A stretch of 64,000 nucleotides of DNA from Acidobacteriota bacterium (GTDB lineage: Bacteria > Acidobacteriota > Blastocatellia > Pyrinomonadales > Pyrinomonadaceae). The position numbers were made by a program, and so were the translations under genes. Positions 24,712 to 56,423 of the stretch are shown here, piece by piece; positions within the stretch are counted from its first letter, which is position 1; each line of letters starts with the position of its first letter. The notes beneath the pieces were generated by a model that saw only the letters and a program-made list of their open reading frames with translations, was not told the DNA's origin and did not search any database. The stretch is taken from contig QHXQ01000039.1 of assembly GCA_003223935.1 (NCBI GenBank), positions 2,535 to 66,534 on the forward strand, given 5' to 3'.

Positions 24712-25479
24712 ATGAACGTAGATAAATTGAAGCGGACGGTCAAGCCACTCGTCTTGACGTGTTCATTATTGGCCGGCGTCGTGATCGTTTCGGTCGCAAC
24801 TGGCCATGCGCAGGGCCGGCACGGTGGCGGCAGCGAGAGCCATAGCGGCGGCGGTGGTGGCCGGAGTAGCGGCGGTAGCAGTCATAGCAGCAGCAGTCAT
24901 AGCAGTAGCGGCCGTAGTAGCAGTGATCACAGTAGCAGTCGCAGTAGTAGTGATCACAGCCGCAGTGGTCGGAGTCGTGGGAGCGACGACAGTGGGCACG
25001 CGCATCGGGAGCGCGGCGGCGATGACAGCGCACGGAGCAGTGGTAGTAGCTCACCGACTTGGAGACATCATCACGGCCGAGATCACGACCACGACCATGA
25101 TCGGGATCATGACCGAGATCGCGATCATCACCGCGAGCACAAGCATCGGCGGGATCGGGATCGAGATGATCGCTATCGCGCCTATCACAACACGCGCGTT
25201 TACCAGTCCTCGAATTATGGCGGCTATGGTTATAGCTCGAACGCTTACGAGCGCGGCTACCAAGATGGCTTGCACACGGGCGCGAAGGATGCGCAGCGCG
25301 GGCAAAGCTATGACCCGGAGCGTTCCCATTTTTACCAGCATGGCACGTCCGGTTTCTTCTCTATTTTCGGCAGCCGGGGCACGTACCAACAGGCTTATCG
25401 AGATGGCTTCCTGCGCGGCTATGAAGAAGGCTATCAGCACTATGAAAGCTACTTCACCGGCGGGCATTTTCACCGTTAG
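24712..25479 (+). CDS. Secreted low-complexity Ser/His/Asp/Arg-rich protein
   Basis: I place the start at ATG 24712, preceded by a GGAGG RBS at 24701. Signal/TM segment LVLTCSLLAGVVIVSVATGHA, then SHSSSSHSSSGRSSSDHSSSRSSSDHS and RHHHGRDHDHDHDRDHDRDRDHHREHKHRRDRDRDD. The Tyr/Gly-rich C-terminus has repeated (E/D)RGYQDG and RDGFLRGYEEGYQ motifs. Confidence 0.65.
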   Translation: MNVDKLKRTVKPLVLTCSLLAGVVIVSVATGHAQGRHGGGSESHSGGGGGRSSGGSSHSSSSHSSSGRSSSDHSSSRSSSDHSRSGRSRGSDDSGHAHRERGGDDSARSSGSSSPTWRHHHGRDHDHDHDRDHDRDRDHHREHKHRRDRDRDDRYRAYHNTRVYQSSNYGGYGYSSNAYERGYQDGLHTGAKDAQRGQSYDPERSHFYQHGTSGFFSIFGSRGTYQQAYRDGFLRGYEEGYQHYESYFTGGHFHR

Positions 25480-43739: not shown

Positions 43740-45784
43740 GCGCACTCGACACTTTGCTCGCGCACAAGCTGTTTCAGGCGCTCGGCTGGGCGCTTGTGCA
43801 TTTCATCTGGCAGGGCGCGCTCGTCGCGCTGACTTACGCGGGCGCTGAGTTGTGGCTGCGGCGTGCGTCGGCGCAGGCGCGTTACGCAGCCGGTTGCGTC
43901 GGCCTGCTGTTGATGCTCGCGTGTCCCGTCGGCACGCTGTTGTGGTGCAACGCAACACAGCCGTTAAGCGCACATGTGCAGGCCACATCGGTGCTCGGCA
44001 GCACGTCAGCCACCGCGTTGCGCGTGTCAACAAGTAATGTAACCGTGCGCGACGGTGCGCTCGTCCAAGCAGACGATTTCCTAGACGACACGCTCGATGC
44101 ACCTGCGCCGTTTCGCCTCTGGCTGGCGGAACGTTTTCCGTCCGCGCTGCCTTGGCTGGTGCTCGCGTGGCTCGCGGGCGCGTGTGTGTTGTCGCTGCGG
44201 CTGGCCGGAGGTTGGTTGTTGGCGCGGCGACTCAGACGTGAACCCGCGCCGCTCGCGTCGCGCGCTTGGCAGGAGACGGCTGCGCGGCTGGCGCGGCGGC
44301 TGCGGGTTTCACGTCCCTTTCGTCTGTGCGAATCGGCATTGATTGAAGTGCCTGCGGTCATCGATGTCTTGCGCCCCATCATCCTGTTGCCAGCGTGTGC
44401 ACTGACAGGCTTGAGCGCGCCGCAACTCGAAGCTCTCATCGCGCACGAACTCGCGCACGTCGGACGACATGATTATCTGGTCAACCTGTTGCAGACGTGC
44501 ATCGAGACGCTGCTCTTTTATCACCCGGCGGTCTGGTGGCTCTCGCGGCGCGTGCGCACAGAGCGCGAGCATTGCTGTGACGACGCCGCTGTCGCGGCCA
44601 CAGGCGATGTGCTCGTCTATGCGCACGCATTGACCGCGCTCGAACAACTGCGCCGCCGTCCCGTTCATCGGTTCGCTATCGCTGCCAATGGAGGTTCACT
44701 CATGCAACGCATTCAGAGACTTTTGCAACCGCACAGAAACGCGCCGCGTCGTGCACCGGCAAGCGCCGGTCTCTTGCTCATGCTCATCGCGCTCCTGAGT
44801 ATTCTCGCGGGCGCGCAAGGCCTCGCTTCGCTCAGACGCTATGACGCACCCGAAGCGTCTGCGCCGCAACGCCCCGTGCTCGTGCCAGCGCAGCGCAAAG
44901 TGGCCGTCACTTTCGTCAGCATGCCGGCCACTTGGATCTATTACGACCCGCGTGCCGAACGCGAGTTGCGCAAACTCATCGCCAGCTTGAACGCGCACAA
45001 CATCCCGGCCACGGGCTTTGTCAACGAGAGTTCGCTCTACCATGAAGGCCAATTAGACGAACAGCGCGTCGCGTTGCTGCGCCTCTGGCTCGATGCGGGC
45101 TTCGATCTCGGTGCACAGCCGAACCCACACGCGAGTCTCTACGACACGCCGCTCGCAGACTTCGAGCAGGACGTGTTGCGCGGCGAAGAGATCACAGGGC
45201 AACTGCTCAAAGAGCGCGGCCGCTCGCTGCGCTATTTCAGCTATCCATTCCTCAACACGGGCCCCGATGCGGCGACCAAAGAGGCGGCCGAGAAATTCTT
45301 GGCCGCACGTCATTACCGCATCCATCAGGTCACGATAGATAACATGGACTGGCTCTTCGGCAAGGTCTATATGGACGCGCGGCGGCGCGGCGACGAGGCG
45401 ACGATGCAGCGCGTCGCCGACGAGTATGTGCCTTATATGGAACGCATGTTCGAGTTCTACGAACAACTCTCGCGCGACACGCTCGGCCACGAGCCGCCGC
45501 AAGTCTTGCTGCTCATGGCGAGCGCCTTGAACGCCGACAAGATGGACGACCTCGTGGCGATGTTGCAGCGACGCGGTTATCAGTTCGTCACGCTCGATGA
45601 GGCGCAGCAAGACAAGGCTTACAGTCTGCCCGATACCTACACAGGCCCGATGGGCATCTCTTGGTTGCAACGCTGGGCTATGGCCAAAGGCGCGTCCTTC
45701 CGCAAAGAACCCTACCTGCCCCCTTACATGCAGCAGTACGACTTCCGCCAGAGCGGCTCGGATTTCAAGACCAATCTCAAGTGA
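43736..45784 (+). CDS. BlaR1-like M56 family membrane metalloprotease/signal transducer with C-terminal polysaccharide-deacetylase-like (degenerate) domain
   Basis: 682 aa. TM helices and HEXXH zinc site HELAHVGRHD (~44444), followed by ETLLFYHPAVWW, as in M56 peptidases. An extra TM helix follows. The ~280-aa C-terminal domain reads VAVTFVSMP...IPATGFVN...WLDAGFDLGAQPNPHAS...LRYFSYPF..., resembling CE4/NodB deacetylases with the catalytic residues substituted. Confidence 0.75.
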   Translation: MSALDTLLAHKLFQALGWALVHFIWQGALVALTYAGAELWLRRASAQARYAAGCVGLLLMLACPVGTLLWCNATQPLSAHVQATSVLGSTSATALRVSTSNVTVRDGALVQADDFLDDTLDAPAPFRLWLAERFPSALPWLVLAWLAGACVLSLRLAGGWLLARRLRREPAPLASRAWQETAARLARRLRVSRPFRLCESALIEVPAVIDVLRPIILLPACALTGLSAPQLEALIAHELAHVGRHDYLVNLLQTCIETLLFYHPAVWWLSRRVRTEREHCCDDAAVAATGDVLVYAHALTALEQLRRRPVHRFAIAANGGSLMQRIQRLLQPHRNAPRRAPASAGLLLMLIALLSILAGAQGLASLRRYDAPEASAPQRPVLVPAQRKVAVTFVSMPATWIYYDPRAERELRKLIASLNAHNIPATGFVNESSLYHEGQLDEQRVALLRLWLDAGFDLGAQPNPHASLYDTPLADFEQDVLRGEEITGQLLKERGRSLRYFSYPFLNTGPDAATKEAAEKFLAARHYRIHQVTIDNMDWLFGKVYMDARRRGDEATMQRVADEYVPYMERMFEFYEQLSRDTLGHEPPQVLLLMASALNADKMDDLVAMLQRRGYQFVTLDEAQQDKAYSLPDTYTGPMGISWLQRWAMAKGASFRKEPYLPPYMQQYDFRQSGSDFKTNLK

Positions 45785-51106: not shown

Positions 51107-52057
51107 ATGGCCACTGCGCACGACAATCACGTGCACCCGCACGGGCATCATTATGCGGCGCGCAGCCAACGGCGTCTGGCGCTCGTGCTCGTGCTGATCA
51201 CGCTCTACATGTTTGCCGAGGCGGTCGGCGGTTGGCTCTCGAATTCGCTCGCTTTGCTTGCAGACGCCGGGCACATGTTGACAGATGTGGGCGCGCTGTT
51301 GCTCGCGCTCTTCGCCGCTTGGTTCAGCGCGCGCCCGGCCACGCCCGACAAGACATTCGGCTACTATCGGCTTGAAATCCTCGCCGCGTTTACGAACGGT
51401 GTGGTGCTCGTCGCCATCTCGCTCGGCATCTTCTATGCAGCTTATCGTCGTTGGCTCGAACCGAAAGCGGTTGAGAGTCATCTGTTGATCTTGGTCGCCT
51501 CAGGCGGCCTCGTCGTCAATCTGATCTGCGCTTGGTTGCTGCACGGCGCGCACGAGGGCGATCTAAATGTGCGCGGCGCTTGGTTGCACATCATCGGCGA
51601 CGCGCTCGGCTCAGTCGGCGCGATCATCGCCGGCATCCTGATCGCCACGCGCGGTTGGTATGCCGCCGATCCACTCATCAGCGCCTTTATCAGTTGTTTG
51701 ATCATCTGGAGTTCTTGGCATCTGCTCCGCGAAGCGACGAACGTGCTCTTAGAAGGCACGCCCGCGCACATCAATCTCGCGTCGGTCGAAGAGGCGATCT
51801 TAAAAACTGACGGCGTCGCAGGCGTCCACGACCTGCACGTCTGGACGATCACTTCGGGGCGCGAAGCGCTGAGCGCGCACGTCGTCCACGCGCACACAGT
51901 CGCGCAGCCCGCGCTCTTACATGCGTTGCGCGTCAAACTGCACGACCGCTTCGGCGTTGACCATCTCACGATCCAGATGGAGATGGCTGACAACGAAGAC
52001 GACACGTTCCACTTCTGTCACGCAGGCACGGATTGTTATCAGAAAAGTGGTCAGTAG
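51107..52057 (+). CDS. czcD: Cation diffusion facilitator (CDF) family Zn/Co/Cd efflux transporter
   Basis: I place the start at ATG 51107 (MATAHDNHVHPHGHHYAA, a His-rich N-terminus). TM2/TM5 metal sites: LLADAGHMLTDV and WLHIIGDALGSVG. C-terminal dimerisation domain: VHDLHVWTITSG. Confidence 0.9.
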   Translation: MATAHDNHVHPHGHHYAARSQRRLALVLVLITLYMFAEAVGGWLSNSLALLADAGHMLTDVGALLLALFAAWFSARPATPDKTFGYYRLEILAAFTNGVVLVAISLGIFYAAYRRWLEPKAVESHLLILVASGGLVVNLICAWLLHGAHEGDLNVRGAWLHIIGDALGSVGAIIAGILIATRGWYAADPLISAFISCLIIWSSWHLLREATNVLLEGTPAHINLASVEEAILKTDGVAGVHDLHVWTITSGREALSAHVVHAHTVAQPALLHALRVKLHDRFGVDHLTIQMEMADNEDDTFHFCHAGTDCYQKSGQ

Positions 52058-52121
52058 TCAGTGGTCGGTGGTCAGTGAGAACAGGCTTTTACTGACCACC
52101 GACCACTGACTACTGACCACT
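52046..52121. repeat. Perfect 31-bp-stem palindromic element (GGTCAGTG family), downstream flank of the CDF gene
   Basis: agtggtcagtagtcagtggtcggtggtcagt (52046..52076) pairs perfectly with actgaccaccgaccactgactactgaccact (52091..52121) across a 14-nt loop. The left arm overlaps the last codons and stop of the CDF gene. Confidence 0.85.
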
Positions 52122-52128
52122 GACCATC

Positions 52129-52371: not shown

Positions 52372-52383
52372 GTGAGGAGCGTC

Positions 52384-53652
52384 ATGGCGCAGATCGAACT
52401 CGGTTACGGGCGCGGGGCGCGAGTGGCGTTTGCGTATGATGAAGCGCGCTTCGCATTGCTTGCGCCGGCAGAAACGGAAGCGTTGCAGCCGTTGTCGGAT
52501 GCAGAACTGGGCGCGTTGATTGATGATCCGTTTGATGCGCAGCCGCTCGAAGAGTGCATCAGCCCCGGCGAGAGCGTGCTGGTCGTCGTCTCGGACGCGA
52601 CGCGCGCAACCGCGAGCGCGCAAGTCGTCCACTTGCTCGCGCGCCGTTTAATTCAACTCGGCGTCGCGCCGTCGGACTTGCGGATCATCTTCGCCACCGG
52701 CATACATCGCCCCGTCACCGCGCAAGAGAAGAACGAACTGCTCACGCCCTTCATCACGCAGCGCCTGCGCACGCTCGATCACGATGCGAATGATCCGGCG
52801 CAACACGTCCAACTCGGTGTGACCGAGCACGGCACACCCATCGAACTTAACCGCGCGCTCGTCGAACACGATCACGTCATTCTCACCGGCGCGATCTGTT
52901 TCCATTACTTCGCGGGCTTCACGGGCGGGCGCAAGAGCATCTGTCCCGGTCTCGCCTCGGCGCGCACGATTGCCGCGACGCACCTTCAGGCGCTCGACAC
53001 AGAGCGCGGCGGCCGACGCGCGGGCGTCGGCACGGGCCGGCTCGACGGCAACGCGGTGCATGAAGAGTGCGAACGTGTGGCGGCCGAGGTTGCGCCTTCG
53101 TTTCTGCTGAACACGGTGGTTGACGAACGCGGGCGCGCGGTGAAGTTGTACGCGGGCCACTGGCGCACGGCGCACCGACTCGCGTGCGCCGAGTATGCGG
53201 CCGCACACACGCTCAAGATCGCGGAGCGGCGTCCGCTCGTCATCGTCAGTTGCGGTGGCGCGCCTTACGACATCAACCTGATTCAAGCGCACAAAGCGCT
53301 CGACATGGCCGCGCATGCTTGCACGGACGGCGGCGCGATCATCCTGCTCGCCGCATGTCCCGACGGCACTGGGCGCGCAGACTTCCTGCAATGGTTCGAC
53401 GCCGCCGACTCGCGCGCCCTCGCCGCGCGCCTGCTCGATGCTTACGCCGTCAACGGTCAGACCGCTTGGGCGCTCCTCACCAAAGCCGAACGCTTCCACG
53501 TCCAACTCGTCTCACAACTCGCCGATAAGGACGCACGCCACATGCGCCTCCAACCTGCACGCACGCTCGCCGAAGCACTCGCTCGCGTGGACGCACACGC
53601 GCACGGCTACATCATGCCGCTCGGCGCACGCTACCTGCCCGTCGTAGAGTGA
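52384..53652 (+). CDS. LarA-like lactate racemase domain (DUF2088) protein
   Basis: I place the start at ATG 52384 after a GAGGAG RBS. Motifs: VVVSDATRAT, IFATGIHRPVT, FHYFAGFTGGRKSICPGLA and GNAVHEE, typical of the nickel-pincer LarA family from memory. Confidence 0.75.
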   Translation: MAQIELGYGRGARVAFAYDEARFALLAPAETEALQPLSDAELGALIDDPFDAQPLEECISPGESVLVVVSDATRATASAQVVHLLARRLIQLGVAPSDLRIIFATGIHRPVTAQEKNELLTPFITQRLRTLDHDANDPAQHVQLGVTEHGTPIELNRALVEHDHVILTGAICFHYFAGFTGGRKSICPGLASARTIAATHLQALDTERGGRRAGVGTGRLDGNAVHEECERVAAEVAPSFLLNTVVDERGRAVKLYAGHWRTAHRLACAEYAAAHTLKIAERRPLVIVSCGGAPYDINLIQAHKALDMAAHACTDGGAIILLAACPDGTGRADFLQWFDAADSRALAARLLDAYAVNGQTAWALLTKAERFHVQLVSQLADKDARHMRLQPARTLAEALARVDAHAHGYIMPLGARYLPVVE

Positions 53653-53728
53653 TAAAAGATTTAGCGCAGCGCGCAGGTCTGTAGCGGCGTGGCTGGCCCT
53701 TGTCCCCTGATTTACCGTCTGGAAATGG

Positions 53729-54148
53729 TACAAACGGGGCAAGAAAAGGCGTTTTTGCCCATTTCGCAGGGGCAAACAGGGTTTCGTTACGAGCATTTGA
53801 GGTTTCATTTGGAGCAAACGGAGTTCCGTTAGGAGCAAACGAACATCCAAACAGACCAAACGGAACTTCGTTTGGAGCAAACGGAACTCCAAACAGACCA
53901 AACGAATGTTCGTTTGCTCCAAATGAAACCCCAAACAGAGCAAACGGAACTTCAAACAGAGCATTTGGAGTTTCGTTTGCGCCTAACGGAACTCCAAATG
54001 CTCGAAACGGAACCCCGTTTGCTCGTAACGAACCTGCAAAAGCTCTTAACGAACGTCCGGCAAGAGCAAACGAACTCCCGTTCTCGCTAAAAGTGAGAAA
54101 ATTGAGGTTCAAAGTGAGACCGATGAGGTGCAAAGCGAGACCGACGCC
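53729..54148. repeat. Array of ~20 phase-locked degenerate 21-bp repeats with internal CAAACG/CGTTTG dyads
   Basis: The region splits by hand into consecutive 21-mers with no phase slip, e.g. agcaaacggagttccgttagg, agcaaacgaacatccaaacag, accaaacggaacttcgtttgg, agcaaacggaactccaaacag, accaaacgaatgttcgtttgc, tccaaatgaaaccccaaacag, agcaaacggaacttcaaacag, agcatttggagtttcgtttgc. It decays at both ends. Several overlapping track 'ORFs' on both strands span it. Confidence 0.85.
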
Positions 54149-54185
54149 GCTTCGAGCGCGAATCATCGCACTTTTGGCCCAGTCT

Positions 54186-54367
54186 GCCGCGCGAGCGGCA
54201 CTTGAATTTAGCCCGGCGTTTCAACGCCGGGAAAACGTAACCAAACCGCCGCGTCGCGGCAGCGACGCCTGAACCGGCGCGCACAATTCAGGCGTCGCGC
54301 GAGCGACGCCGGGCATATTCATCGTTCTGTTCCCGGCGTTGAAACGCCGGGCTAAATTCAAGTGCCG
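54186..54367. repeat. 182-bp nested palindrome with perfect 46-bp inverted arms (MITE/REP-like)
   Basis: Arm 54186..54231 (gccgcgcgagcggcacttgaatttagcccggcgtttcaacgccggg) is the exact reverse complement of 54322..54367. Each arm holds its own hairpin (cccggcg-tttcaa-cgccggg). The centre holds a second imperfect inverted repeat (gcgtcgc..gacgcctgaa / ttcaggcgtc..gcgacgc). Confidence 0.85.
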
Positions 54368-54431
54368 CTCGCGCGGCGGGTTTGTGCGCAGCCTTCAATG
54401 CCAAGTAGCGGACATTAATTGCGGCCGTGGC

Positions 54432-54758
54432 TTAACGGCGCTTGCTGCGGGCGGGCGATTTGCGCCGCACGCCTGCACTCTGCGCCCGACTTGGCAACTT
54501 ATCGGGCAAGTCCAATTCATCATCAATCAAAACGTCAGTCGAAATCCCCGCCAGCTTCGCGTAAGCCAACAAGACAGGTAGCGGCGGTTCACCCGTCCCT
54601 AACTCGTAGTTTGAGATTCTGTGGTATGCAATCACGTCCGCGAATCCCAAACGCTTGAGCAGGTCGGTTTGAGACAGACCAAGAGTCAAGCGAATCTGGC
54701 GCAACTTCTCAGCCAGACGCTTCGGCTTAATCCGCGCTGCCGCTCCCATCAAGTACAC
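54432..54758 (-). CDS. XRE family helix-turn-helix transcriptional regulator
   Basis: 108 aa. HTH_3 core: LAEKLRQIRLTLGLSQTDLLKRLGF...ISNYELGTGEPPLPVLLAYAKLAGISTDVLIDDEL. Confidence 0.85.
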   Translation of the reverse strand: MYLMGAAARIKPKRLAEKLRQIRLTLGLSQTDLLKRLGFADVIAYHRISNYELGTGEPPLPVLLAYAKLAGISTDVLIDDELDLPDKLPSRAQSAGVRRKSPARSKRR

Positions 54759-55033
54759 CCTCCCGATGGAATGGACGGCGGATTTAGCTTGCTTCTATGC
54801 GGGATTCCGCATAAACTATGGTTGCGTAACCTATTCGCCGTGAGTATGAACCTCTCATGCTCAACGGCGGCGCTCATTACTCCCTTGAGATTGAGGCCGA
54901 GTTACGCATCCGACCGTTGCCTAATTTTCAAAGACTAGAACGCGGGCATGATAGCAAACCACGCGCCCGCCTGAATACCTGAATGTGTGATAATCTCACC
55001 AATTTACGCTGTCTCTTAAGTGGCCGTCACCGG

Positions 55034-55318
55034 ATGCCGATCTATCGTTATAAAGTCCTCTACGTCGGCACGAATCACGCCTTAGCCGCTTGGCTCAAGA
55101 CTGCGCTTGCAGCCAGAGATTGCTTCCTTGACTACTGCCCCGCCGCTTGGCTCGCGCGATCCCTGTTAGAGCACGACATTTATTACTCGCTCTGCTTGTT
55201 CGATGAACTACCCGATGCGACAGGGGCCGAGTTGGCCGCCTTTACCCGCACGTTAGCAAATCGTCAGAGTGTGCCGCTCATCCTTGTCAAAGCACTGATT
55301 AAGGATGAGGCGGCTTAA
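55034..55318 (+). CDS. Small receiver-like (degenerate REC) protein
   Basis: I place the start at ATG 55034 inside ORF 54983..55318. MPIYRYKVLYVGTNHALAAWLKTAL...YSLCLFDELPDATGAELAAFTRTL...VPLILV follows a REC beta-alpha pattern, but the N-terminal acidic pair is missing and the domain is short (94 aa). Confidence 0.45.
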   Translation: MPIYRYKVLYVGTNHALAAWLKTALAARDCFLDYCPAAWLARSLLEHDIYYSLCLFDELPDATGAELAAFTRTLANRQSVPLILVKALIKDEAA

Positions 55319-55501
55319 CTTCTGCCGGCCACTTAGACGCCAGTGCACATGTCCCCGATTTGCAAAATCTATTGCGCTTTCAAAACGAAGCGCCAGAGAA
55401 AACCTTGCGCATCCGTCGCCGCGTGGCATAATGCACGGCACTGGCCCGGGCGCGCTCGATGCAAGCGCGTTTGAAAATTGATGACAAAGAGGAGCATAGA
55501 C

Positions 55502-56270: not shown

Positions 56271-56423
56271 ATGGCAGACGACAACGCGCGCAAGTGCAAA
56301 CACGGCGGCTGTAGCTGCACGGTCTCAGGCGACAGCGACTATTGCAGCGAATACTGCGAGAACGCACACAAGAGCGGCGTCACAGAGATCGGCTGCGGCT
56401 GCGAACACGATCCTTGCCGCTAA
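56271..56423 (+). CDS. Bacterial metallothionein-like Cys/His-rich micro-protein (SmtA/BmtA-like)
   Basis: Not in the track (50 aa). AAGGAG RBS at 56257, ATG at 56271. Hand translation: MADDNARKCKHGGCSCTVSGDSDYCSEYCENAHKSGVTEIGCGCEHDPCR, with 8 Cys and 3 His. The pattern CxHxxCxC...YCSxxC...H...CxCxHxxC resembles SmtA (KCACEPCLC...YYCSEACADGH...CGHTGCNC, from memory). Followed by a hairpin terminator. Confidence 0.7.
   Translation: MADDNARKCKHGGCSCTVSGDSDYCSEYCENAHKSGVTEIGCGCEHDPCR

Follow-up and report, generated by a model that had tools for sequence, protein, structure and literature searches.

The array and its immediate setting

The stretch of DNA analysed here (64,000 nucleotides of contig QHXQ01000039.1 from a member of the Pyrinomonadaceae, phylum Acidobacteriota; hereafter the window) contains a tandem array of 21-bp units, which lies between a larA-like gene (52372-53652, plus strand; Pfam Lar_N and LarA_C) and a gene for an XRE-family helix-turn-helix (HTH) regulator (54432-54749, minus strand; Pfam HTH_3, HTH_19 and HTH_31). 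The gap between these genes measures 779 bp (53653-54431). The original prediction, made from the letters of the sequence alone, had put it at about 780 bp and had described within it 20 phase-locked units at 53729-54148. The units are borne out by stacking, autocorrelation and Tandem Repeats Finder (TRF): 20 consecutive 21-mers tile the region in a single register, and TRF returns periods of 21, 42 and 63. Base identity within the array is 0.53, 0.56, 0.50, 0.48 and 0.51 at lags of 21, 42, 63, 84 and 105; other lags give about 0.25. Across 300 shuffles that preserved dinucleotides, the highest identity at any lag from 5 to 59 had a mean of 0.311 (sd 0.011) and a maximum of 0.35, compared with 0.53 at lag 21 in the array. 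The CAAA[CT] and [AG]TTTG cores are restricted to two residues modulo 21, with zero slips in the core-position analysis. The distance between successive cores alternates between 12 and 9 bp, which corrects the 10-11 bp previously given for the half-sites.

The array is a real, noncoding and helically phased tract, with a GC content of 0.45-0.48 against 0.63-0.69 in the flanks, and its motif has no second occurrence within the 64-kb window. Its units are contiguous and without spacers, in keeping with the earlier view that it is neither a CRISPR nor a microsatellite. The array core (53771-54085, minus strand), delimited by unit stacking and core positions, comprises 15 units of what we call class 1, each reading GAGCAAACGGAACTCCAAACA or its reverse complement with the register unchanged. 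Orientation was scored by core positions; because half-units flip independently, a classification of whole units as forward or reverse was too coarse and was dropped. As a whole, the core forms a long imperfect palindrome (arms 53783-53851 and 53964-54032, 81% complementary), and most of the 15 inverted-repeat pairs in 53400-54800 fall inside the array. As originally described, the units at 53856 and 53899 are palindromic, AACGGA[AG] occurs six times, and there are four overlapping open reading frames (ORFs). Distal to the core, three units of the sub-type AAAGTGAGACCGATGAGGTGC keep the 21-bp register (54086-54148, minus strand). They are called separately by TRF (rows 54090-54140 and 54103-54144) and are not found in the related arrays L024, L026 and L028. 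At the opposite end, the first two to three units, which correspond to the first units of the original prediction, are degenerate (53720-53770, minus strand).

A second 21-periodic signal in the window, at 24760-25075 (identity 0.54), lies within an ORF of 240-280 aa where TRF reports periods of 15 and 27. This is probably a repeat in coding sequence, unrelated to the array.

Homologous arrays and the intact module

Relatives of the array were gathered by searching with its pseudo-ORFs, that is, the translations of the reading frames crossing it, and then by scanning metagenome contigs. This recovered 11 homologous arrays from soil metagenomes (L001, L002/L030, L024-L029, L031 and L032). All of these hold the 21-bp register without slip, and the number, order and orientation of their units vary. 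Identity in blastn between the array of the window and those of L001, L002/L030, L026 and L027 is 74-80%. A scan of GTDB genomes with CAAACGNNNNNNCAAACAGNNCAAACG gave 21 single matches, none of them 21-bp periodic and all attributable to chance, and no representative genome with the unit was found. DNA searches of plasmid and phage collections gave no match to the array.

Several of the relatives are part of a larger arrangement. In the Pyrinomonadaceae the order of this module is an XRE gene, a hairpin, the 21-bp array, a promoter, and a gene for a coiled-coil protein of 118-124 aa, which we call the helical protein. Loci with homologues of the XRE gene of the window (L033, L038 and L039) contain, directly downstream of that gene and on the same strand, a different 21-bp array with the unit TAAAGTTCAAGGTCAATCAAC, followed by a 118-aa gene. 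L001 and L002 show the same module order on their own minus strands, and their 121-124-aa gene is homologous to the 118-aa gene (35-36% identity). Further loci (L040-L053, L055 and L056) were found by protein search. Intact modules are present in L001, L002, L033, L038, L040, L043-L052, L053, L055 and L056; the unit class of L040 is the same as that of the window. In L053 and L056 the array and the helical-protein gene occur without an XRE gene.

Within intact modules the array occupies 300-550 bp upstream of the helical-protein gene and reaches the -35 box. A conserved promoter-like element, GCTTGAAT (or TTGCCA)-N16-ATATACT, lies between array and gene and is predicted to be a sigma-70-type promoter (TTGAAT/TTGCCA-N16-TATACT). 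This -35/-10 pair is followed by a leader of 70-74 nt, an AGGAGG sequence and the helical-protein gene. The promoter-proximal end of the array, TGGAAATGGTRCAAACGGGG...CCATTTCGCAGGGG, recurs in L001, L002, L040 and other relatives. Alignment by eye with L001, L002, L040 and L027 shows the degenerate segment 53720-53770 to be homologous to the stretch that, in intact modules, lies at about -33 to -105, counted upstream from the -35 box. Association between array and gene was assessed in segments of 168 nt, which were scored as periodic where identity at lag 21 or 42 was 0.50 or more. A periodic segment was present upstream of the gene in 10 of 10 distinct loci, as compared with 7 of 2360 background segments (0.3%). 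An apparently perfect repeat in L050 was rejected, being a run of N.

The unit sequences of the Pyrinomonadaceae modules fall into at least four classes. Class 1, to which the window belongs, is a mosaic of CAAAC and GTTTG in which 40% of 7-mers also occur in the reverse complement, whereas classes 2-4 are pure direct repeats with a corresponding value of 0-11%. Six loci of classes 2-4 (L033, L038, L043, L053, L055 and L056) place their units at register 0 modulo 21 from the -35 hexamer, despite having 12-24 units and promoter-proximal units that are barely alike.

The helical protein

The helical protein has 825 database homologues, all of them annotated as "hypothetical". In its AF2 model (pLDDT 84.6), a short helix at the N-terminus is followed by a single helix of 54 residues and by a basic tail that is disordered. 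Basic segments are conserved at both termini, and R3, R6, R17, K22, R103, K108 and R109 are among the invariant residues. No family was assigned to it by Pfam, PHROGs, NCBIfam, PADLOC, a PDB sequence search or Foldseek, and viral contigs contained no relative.

A tblastn search against plasmids identified two homologues on plasmid pA of the cyanobacterium Kovacikia minuta, which hhalign aligns over the full length with probabilities of 99.3% and 99.4%. Twelve 21-bp units lie upstream of the first and abut a TTGATA-N17-TACGAT sequence, and four to five 42-bp units lie upstream of the second. Neither gene has an XRE gene upstream. The same plasmid (L057; NZ_CP083583.1) carries a third 21-bp periodic array at 44752-45100, between an Mrr-like restriction gene and a gene for a GXGXG-domain protein and with no adjacent helical-protein homologue; this may be an orphan array in a cyanobacterium.

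The neighbourhoods of the module in L043-L049, L053, L056, L002, L038 and L057 are rich in genes of defence and conflict type, among them an N6/N4 methyltransferase with a NotI-like enzyme, UvrD-like helicases, Uma2, a TIR-pentapeptide protein, SocA/Panacea, DDE transposases and TPR-CHAT proteins. The restriction-modification pair of L043 is inserted between the helical-protein gene and the UvrD-like gene, which adjoin each other in L053.

A truncated module in the window

In the window the module runs on the minus strand, with the XRE gene (54749-54432) followed by a composite palindrome (54377-54186) and then by the array (54148-53720). Past about 53719/53720, some 33 bp before the expected -35 box, the window is no longer homologous to intact modules. 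No promoter-like site and no TATACT promoter were found past 53720, and tblastn detected no helical-protein homologue in the window. As the homology stops at about 53720, the promoter and the helical-protein gene are missing, and the array is therefore an orphan. The module is cut off against the 3′ end of the larA-like gene, which does not itself belong to the module, and L025 and L031 have the same junction.

This truncation is common to the orthologous larA loci, some of which later lost the XRE gene as well. L025, L031 and L032 represent the orthologous locus, with flanks about 90% identical to those of the window. In all three the array has been kept and the counterpart of 54150-55355 is gone; L025 and L031 retain an N-terminal fragment of the XRE gene.

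Interpretation of the array

The tract is a DNA-level cis element, neither a gene nor a known RNA. We read it as the helically phased array that lies upstream of the promoter in a conserved, undescribed module, surviving in the window as a truncated remnant, and we give this reading a probability of roughly 0.45. In an intact module, each 21-bp unit, equal to two helical turns, would present its site on one face of the DNA, and a multimerising protein would coat the array and thereby control the adjacent promoter. The most probable binder would be the coiled-coil product itself. We infer this coating from the linkage of array and gene, from the AF2 model and conserved basic segments of the protein and from the pairing of unit classes with protein subfamilies. 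The array in the window has no promoter left to act on; it is probably a relic whose register has been kept by unit-wise duplication and deletion, and it may have no remaining function. Of the four hypotheses offered by the original prediction, those of a cooperative-binding or iteron-like array and of curved DNA fit the evidence best, given the two-turn period, the conserved -35 box that is abutted and the register shared by six loci. The statement that no described element is known to have a matching architecture also agrees with the literature searched, on Acido-Lenti-1, on 21-bp repeats in relation to helical turns and on tandem repeats of Pyrinomonadaceae, in which such arrays were not found described.

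Several observations weigh against this reading. The class-1 arrays were found using the array itself as query, and the loci come mostly from one bacterial family. The promoter and its transcription start are predictions from conservation. The register shared by classes 2-4 could be inherited rather than selected, and within class 1 L002 and L040 differ by an offset of 1 bp. A match between unit class and protein subfamily is not proof of recognition, since a gene and the DNA next to it are inherited together. No DNA-binding fold is recognisable in the helical protein. Arrays have survived where the gene is absent, in three contexts or more (the larA locus, L029 and L027), and such gene-less arrays fit a self-maintaining or autonomously useful element as well as they fit a relic.

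If the reading of a promoter-upstream array is correct, it would define an unrecognised design of bacterial regulatory region, in which degenerate repeats at exactly two helical turns per unit extend up to a promoter, and would offer a natural example of long-range face-of-helix organisation. It would also provide a testable function for an unannotated protein family of 825 members together with its homologues on a cyanobacterial plasmid, and would explain the spurious heptad-repeat "proteins" predicted in soil metagenomes. For the annotation of the window, the ORFs over 53512-54272 are to be treated as nongenic and the array as the stranded part of a module that has lost its target gene.

A more far-reaching proposal, tenable although we regard it as doubtful, is that array and coiled-coil protein together constitute a self-contained device present in at least two phyla. 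The protein would polymerise into a long nucleoprotein filament on its own array, and the filament would be a switch, or a structure akin to a centromere or an insulator; orphan arrays such as that of the window could then still be decoys or titration sites for a protein encoded elsewhere in the genome. Such a device would reside in variable regions rich in defence genes, and its specificity pairs would evolve fast, with unit sequences going with protein subfamilies. The two paralogue-array pairs on a single cyanobacterial plasmid would be an instance of this.

Alternative explanations

The array could instead be a neutral or selfish minisatellite, generated by slippage, unequal crossing-over and inversion at a site prone to recombination, and without function, at least in the window, where it would be a decaying remnant. 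Copy number does vary, with 12-29 units among the relatives, and the pseudo-protein P0005, 99% identical to a minus-strand ORF of the window, is missing exactly 231 bp, or 11 units. Unit variants have been homogenised within arrays, as illustrated by GAAAACCT in L025 and L031 versus GGAACTCC in the window, and orphan arrays are found in several contexts, including the window with its lost promoter and gene. However, the units are just 50-77% alike at lag 21, yet no register-breaking indel occurs in about 20 arrays. A period of 21 or 42 bp recurs in six unrelated unit classes from two phyla, always beside the same gene family, and useless DNA is normally deleted from bacterial genomes. We consider a minisatellite origin unlikely.

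Somewhat more improbable is a purely structural role, in which the DNA upstream of a promoter would be intrinsically curved or supercoil-sensitive, or the array a cruciform-prone palindrome, with no need for a sequence-specific protein. Curvature was estimated from wedge-model paths as the ratio of end-to-end distance to contour length. On this basis the class-1 arrays are predicted to be strongly curved, in line with the curved-DNA hypothesis of the original prediction: the ratio is 0.21-0.40 in the window, 0.15-0.24 in L024 and 0.11-0.18 in L029, compared with about 0.9 in shuffles and flanking genes and 0.13-0.28 in phased A6 tracts. AA/TT power at 10.5 bp is 2.7 versus 0.17 in shuffles, and exchanging a unit for its reverse complement leaves the A/T tracts in place. 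The other classes are predicted to be weakly curved, or curved in a model-dependent manner (L033, 0.82-0.88; L043, 0.75-0.94; L054, 0.88-0.98), and curvature is therefore not the conserved property; the 21-bp period is. A3 tracts are, in addition, short for strong bending, and the cores stand 12 and 9 bp apart rather than 10.5. Curvature, as modelled, may still contribute in the class to which the window belongs.

The original prediction named the adjacent XRE protein as a possible binder; on that reading, XRE dimers would occupy CAAACG-N6-CGTTTG dyads cooperatively. The XRE gene is directly upstream of the array in most modules, and some class-1 units are dyads of 18-20 bp, the size expected for an HTH dimer. 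The recognition helices, however, do not follow the arrays. The helix of the window protein, AYHRISNYELG, is identical in L033 and L038, which have unrelated and purely direct units, and in L034, which has no array, whereas L002 and L040 share the unit class of the window and have different recognition helices. In L053, L056 and Kovacikia, array and gene are present with no XRE gene. Each XRE variant has, moreover, a palindrome of its own 50-67 bp before the start codon (window, L033, L034, L038, L040, L002 and L043), unlike any array unit. In the window this is TATGCGggattcCGCATA (54796-54813, TATGCG-N6-CGCATA) in the XRE promoter region, which recurs at the corresponding place in L033, L038 and L034. 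Other palindromes take its place in L040, L002 and L043, where the recognition helix differs; the palindromes of the further variants are TACCGACA-tt-TGTCGGTA, TTTACA-ac-TGTAAA and TTATGTATA-tt-TATACATAA. Across the four helix-palindrome pairs the palindrome thus changes with the recognition helix, as expected of autoregulatory operators, and 54796-54813 is probably the operator of the XRE protein. The adjacent XRE protein is probably not the array binder, and an operator array for it appears very improbable.

Slightly less probable still is the reading of the region as a structured RNA, transcribed, for example, as the 3′ untranslated region (UTR) of the XRE gene or from a promoter of its own and working as a protein sponge or as an RNA of many hairpins. 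Each strand is far more stable when folded than its shuffles are (-177.7 and -173.4 kcal/mol, z about -11 each), and hairpin-rich, terminator-like palindromes lie between the XRE gene and the array. The two strands fold about equally well because the array is a long imperfect palindrome, and across 11 arrays neither strand is consistently favoured. The helices differ between arrays, the long perfect arms of L001 resemble inverted duplications of recent origin, and classes 2-4 are nearly free of inverted repeats. No promoter-like site was found, and a fixed 21-nt register in phase with the -35 box has no obvious meaning for an RNA. The Rfam check proposed earlier gave no family over the array at the gathering score; an E-value threshold returned weak miRNA-like hairpin matches. 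The array resembles the CsrB/RsmZ sponge RNAs in its length of about 400 nt, its roughly 20 short repeats and its many possible hairpins. It differs from them in that GGA is not conserved. This motif follows 5 of 13 A-rich half-sites in the window and 2-8 of 9-24 in the relatives, most of which have GAA in its place, and it is missing from unit classes 2-4. The array also has no promoter/terminator pair. The earlier suggestion of a CsrB-like sponge is not supported, given the minority of units with GGA, the lack of an Rfam match and the absence of a folding strand preference. Two further candidates were discarded, a type III toxin-antitoxin repeat RNA (the units are too short and no toxin gene lies downstream) and a sigma-54 promoter in TGGAAATGGTGC (judged by eye, the GG-GC spacing is wrong).

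There is almost no chance that the region encodes, or once encoded, a heptad-repeat protein (repeats FGANGTP/PFAPNET), even though the period is a multiple of 3, both strands are open across the array and gene callers have predicted such ORFs in metagenomes. The decayed heptad-repeat coding region put forward in the original prediction was rejected because the two long ORFs that cross the array have a GC content at third codon positions (GC3) of 0.40 and 0.38, compared with 0.65-0.79 for genes nearby, Pfam assigns no family to the ORFs, and no frame is open throughout the related 29-unit array L029. The database relatives of the pseudo-ORFs are translations of other such arrays and nothing else, and the occurrence of units in both orientations would switch the peptide repeat. 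The consensus unit is free of stop codons in all six frames, and open frames are thus to be expected from its make-up alone; the ORFs over 53512-54272 are a by-product of composition and not genes.

Other predicted proteins made up of 7-aa or 14-aa repeats (P0008, P0009, P0013, P0015 and P0017, with repeats such as GVPFALS, GIPFTTK and FAPNGIQFTPNETE) may be translations of further 21- or 42-bp DNA arrays.

Comparison with known repeat systems

By analogy, the array would come closest to centromere arrays, iterons and activator arrays, but it fails membership of each. The parC/ParR systems of plasmids R1 and pSK41 and the omega heptads of inc18 plasmids have helix-phased repeats at the promoter of their own small protein; the omega heptads occur in direct or inverted orientation, and the unit sequence varies between systems with the architecture kept. 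The module likewise has helix-phased short repeats at or next to the promoter of a small-protein gene, although here binding to the array is argued from linkage. It differs from partition centromeres in having no ParA, ParM or TubZ NTPase gene in any locus or among the Pfam-scanned neighbours in the window, in the chromosomal context of the array, in a partner predicted to be a long coiled coil rather than a ribbon-helix-helix or HTH protein, and in its 21-bp units and arrays of 300-550 bp, which are several times longer.

Iterons, as in R6K, RK2, pPS10 and P1, are Rep-bound repeats of 17-22 bp placed about two helical turns apart, usually three to seven in number. Tandem units of two turns each, degenerate copies and strict spacing are features that the array shares with them. 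In contrast, the window has 20 units, no Rep gene among the neighbours of the array and 0 matches to the DnaA box (TTWTNCACA) in 64 kb. The array has no match on plasmids, phages or viral contigs, and its neighbours are housekeeping genes (EF-P, ThiE and a CDF transporter).

At the Bordetella ptx promoter, dimers of phosphorylated BvgA (BvgA~P) are arranged about 22 bp apart, up to the -35 region. The likeness to this upstream activator array lies in many weak sites two helical turns apart upstream of a -35 box, and the differences lie in number, six sites as against 12-29 units, and in the protein. BvgA, which acts at the ptx promoter in its phosphorylated form (PMC7250471), is a DNA-binding response regulator, whereas the response regulator of the module is receiver-only and is missing from several loci.

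Like REP/BIME elements, the array is intergenic, lies between convergent genes in the window and, in class 1 only, has both unit orientations and hairpins. Unlike them, it has a strict 21-bp register with no alternating Y/Z units and linkers, its classes 2-4 are purely direct, and it goes with one gene family, where REP/BIME elements are scattered in hundreds of copies. A single copy is present in the 64-kb window, at least four flank contexts were seen in metagenomes, and no transposase was seen adjoining the array.

Other features of the locus

The original prediction also described a 182-bp palindrome with perfect arms abutting the array. A palindrome does lie near the array; it spans 192 bp, however (54186-54377), and begins 37 bp past the array, on the side of the XRE stop codon. 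It is a composite, in which the arms are perfect over 48 nt and further hairpins lie inside. Its arms score 32.9 bits (54332-54378, plus strand) and 32.0 bits (54185-54231, minus strand) against Acido-Lenti-1 (RF01687), both below the Rfam gathering score of 37. In L024, L026 and L028 this palindrome again comes after the array, and another composite palindrome occupies the equivalent place, from the XRE stop codon to the array, in L002 (1293-1500) and L040 (7413-7579). The palindrome of the window is probably the XRE terminator or a REP-like insertion.

The likely start of the XRE gene is the ATG at 54749, giving a protein of 105 aa as in the 97%-identical P0018. The protein has 5324 homologues, many of them about 80% identical and several from named Pyrinomonadaceae. 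Exact-sequence look-ups of the larA-like and XRE ORFs as given by the ORF finder returned no match; wrong start codons are probable. Divergent from the XRE gene, and recognised from tblastn and gene tables, is a receiver-like ORF (54983-55318, plus strand) with no Pfam match. The response regulator of L027 aligns with 55055-55297 by tblastn (28% identity, E 4e-4), and on this sequence similarity we take the ORF to be a degenerate counterpart of the single-domain response regulator in L002, L040 and L027. An inverted repeat, CGCCGTGAG...CTCAACGGCG (54836-54869), in the intergenic region between the response-regulator and XRE genes is kept in every module examined.

The surroundings in the window are ordinary chromosomal genes, which encode a CDF transporter, EF-P, ThiE, a secretion ATPase of the T2SSE family and a beta-barrel protein of the outer membrane. 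At 52046-52126 two heptamer arrays, AGTGGTC repeated 4.6 times and then ACTGACC repeated 5.1 times, adjoin each other in opposite orientation. The pair makes up a hairpin, its arms about 35 nt long, at the stop codon (52057) of the CDF cation-efflux gene, which it surrounds. About 4 kb from this gene, a cysteine-rich ORF of 50 aa with no Pfam match (MADDNARKCKHGGCSCTV...CGCEHDPCR; 56271-56423) may encode a small metal-binding protein.

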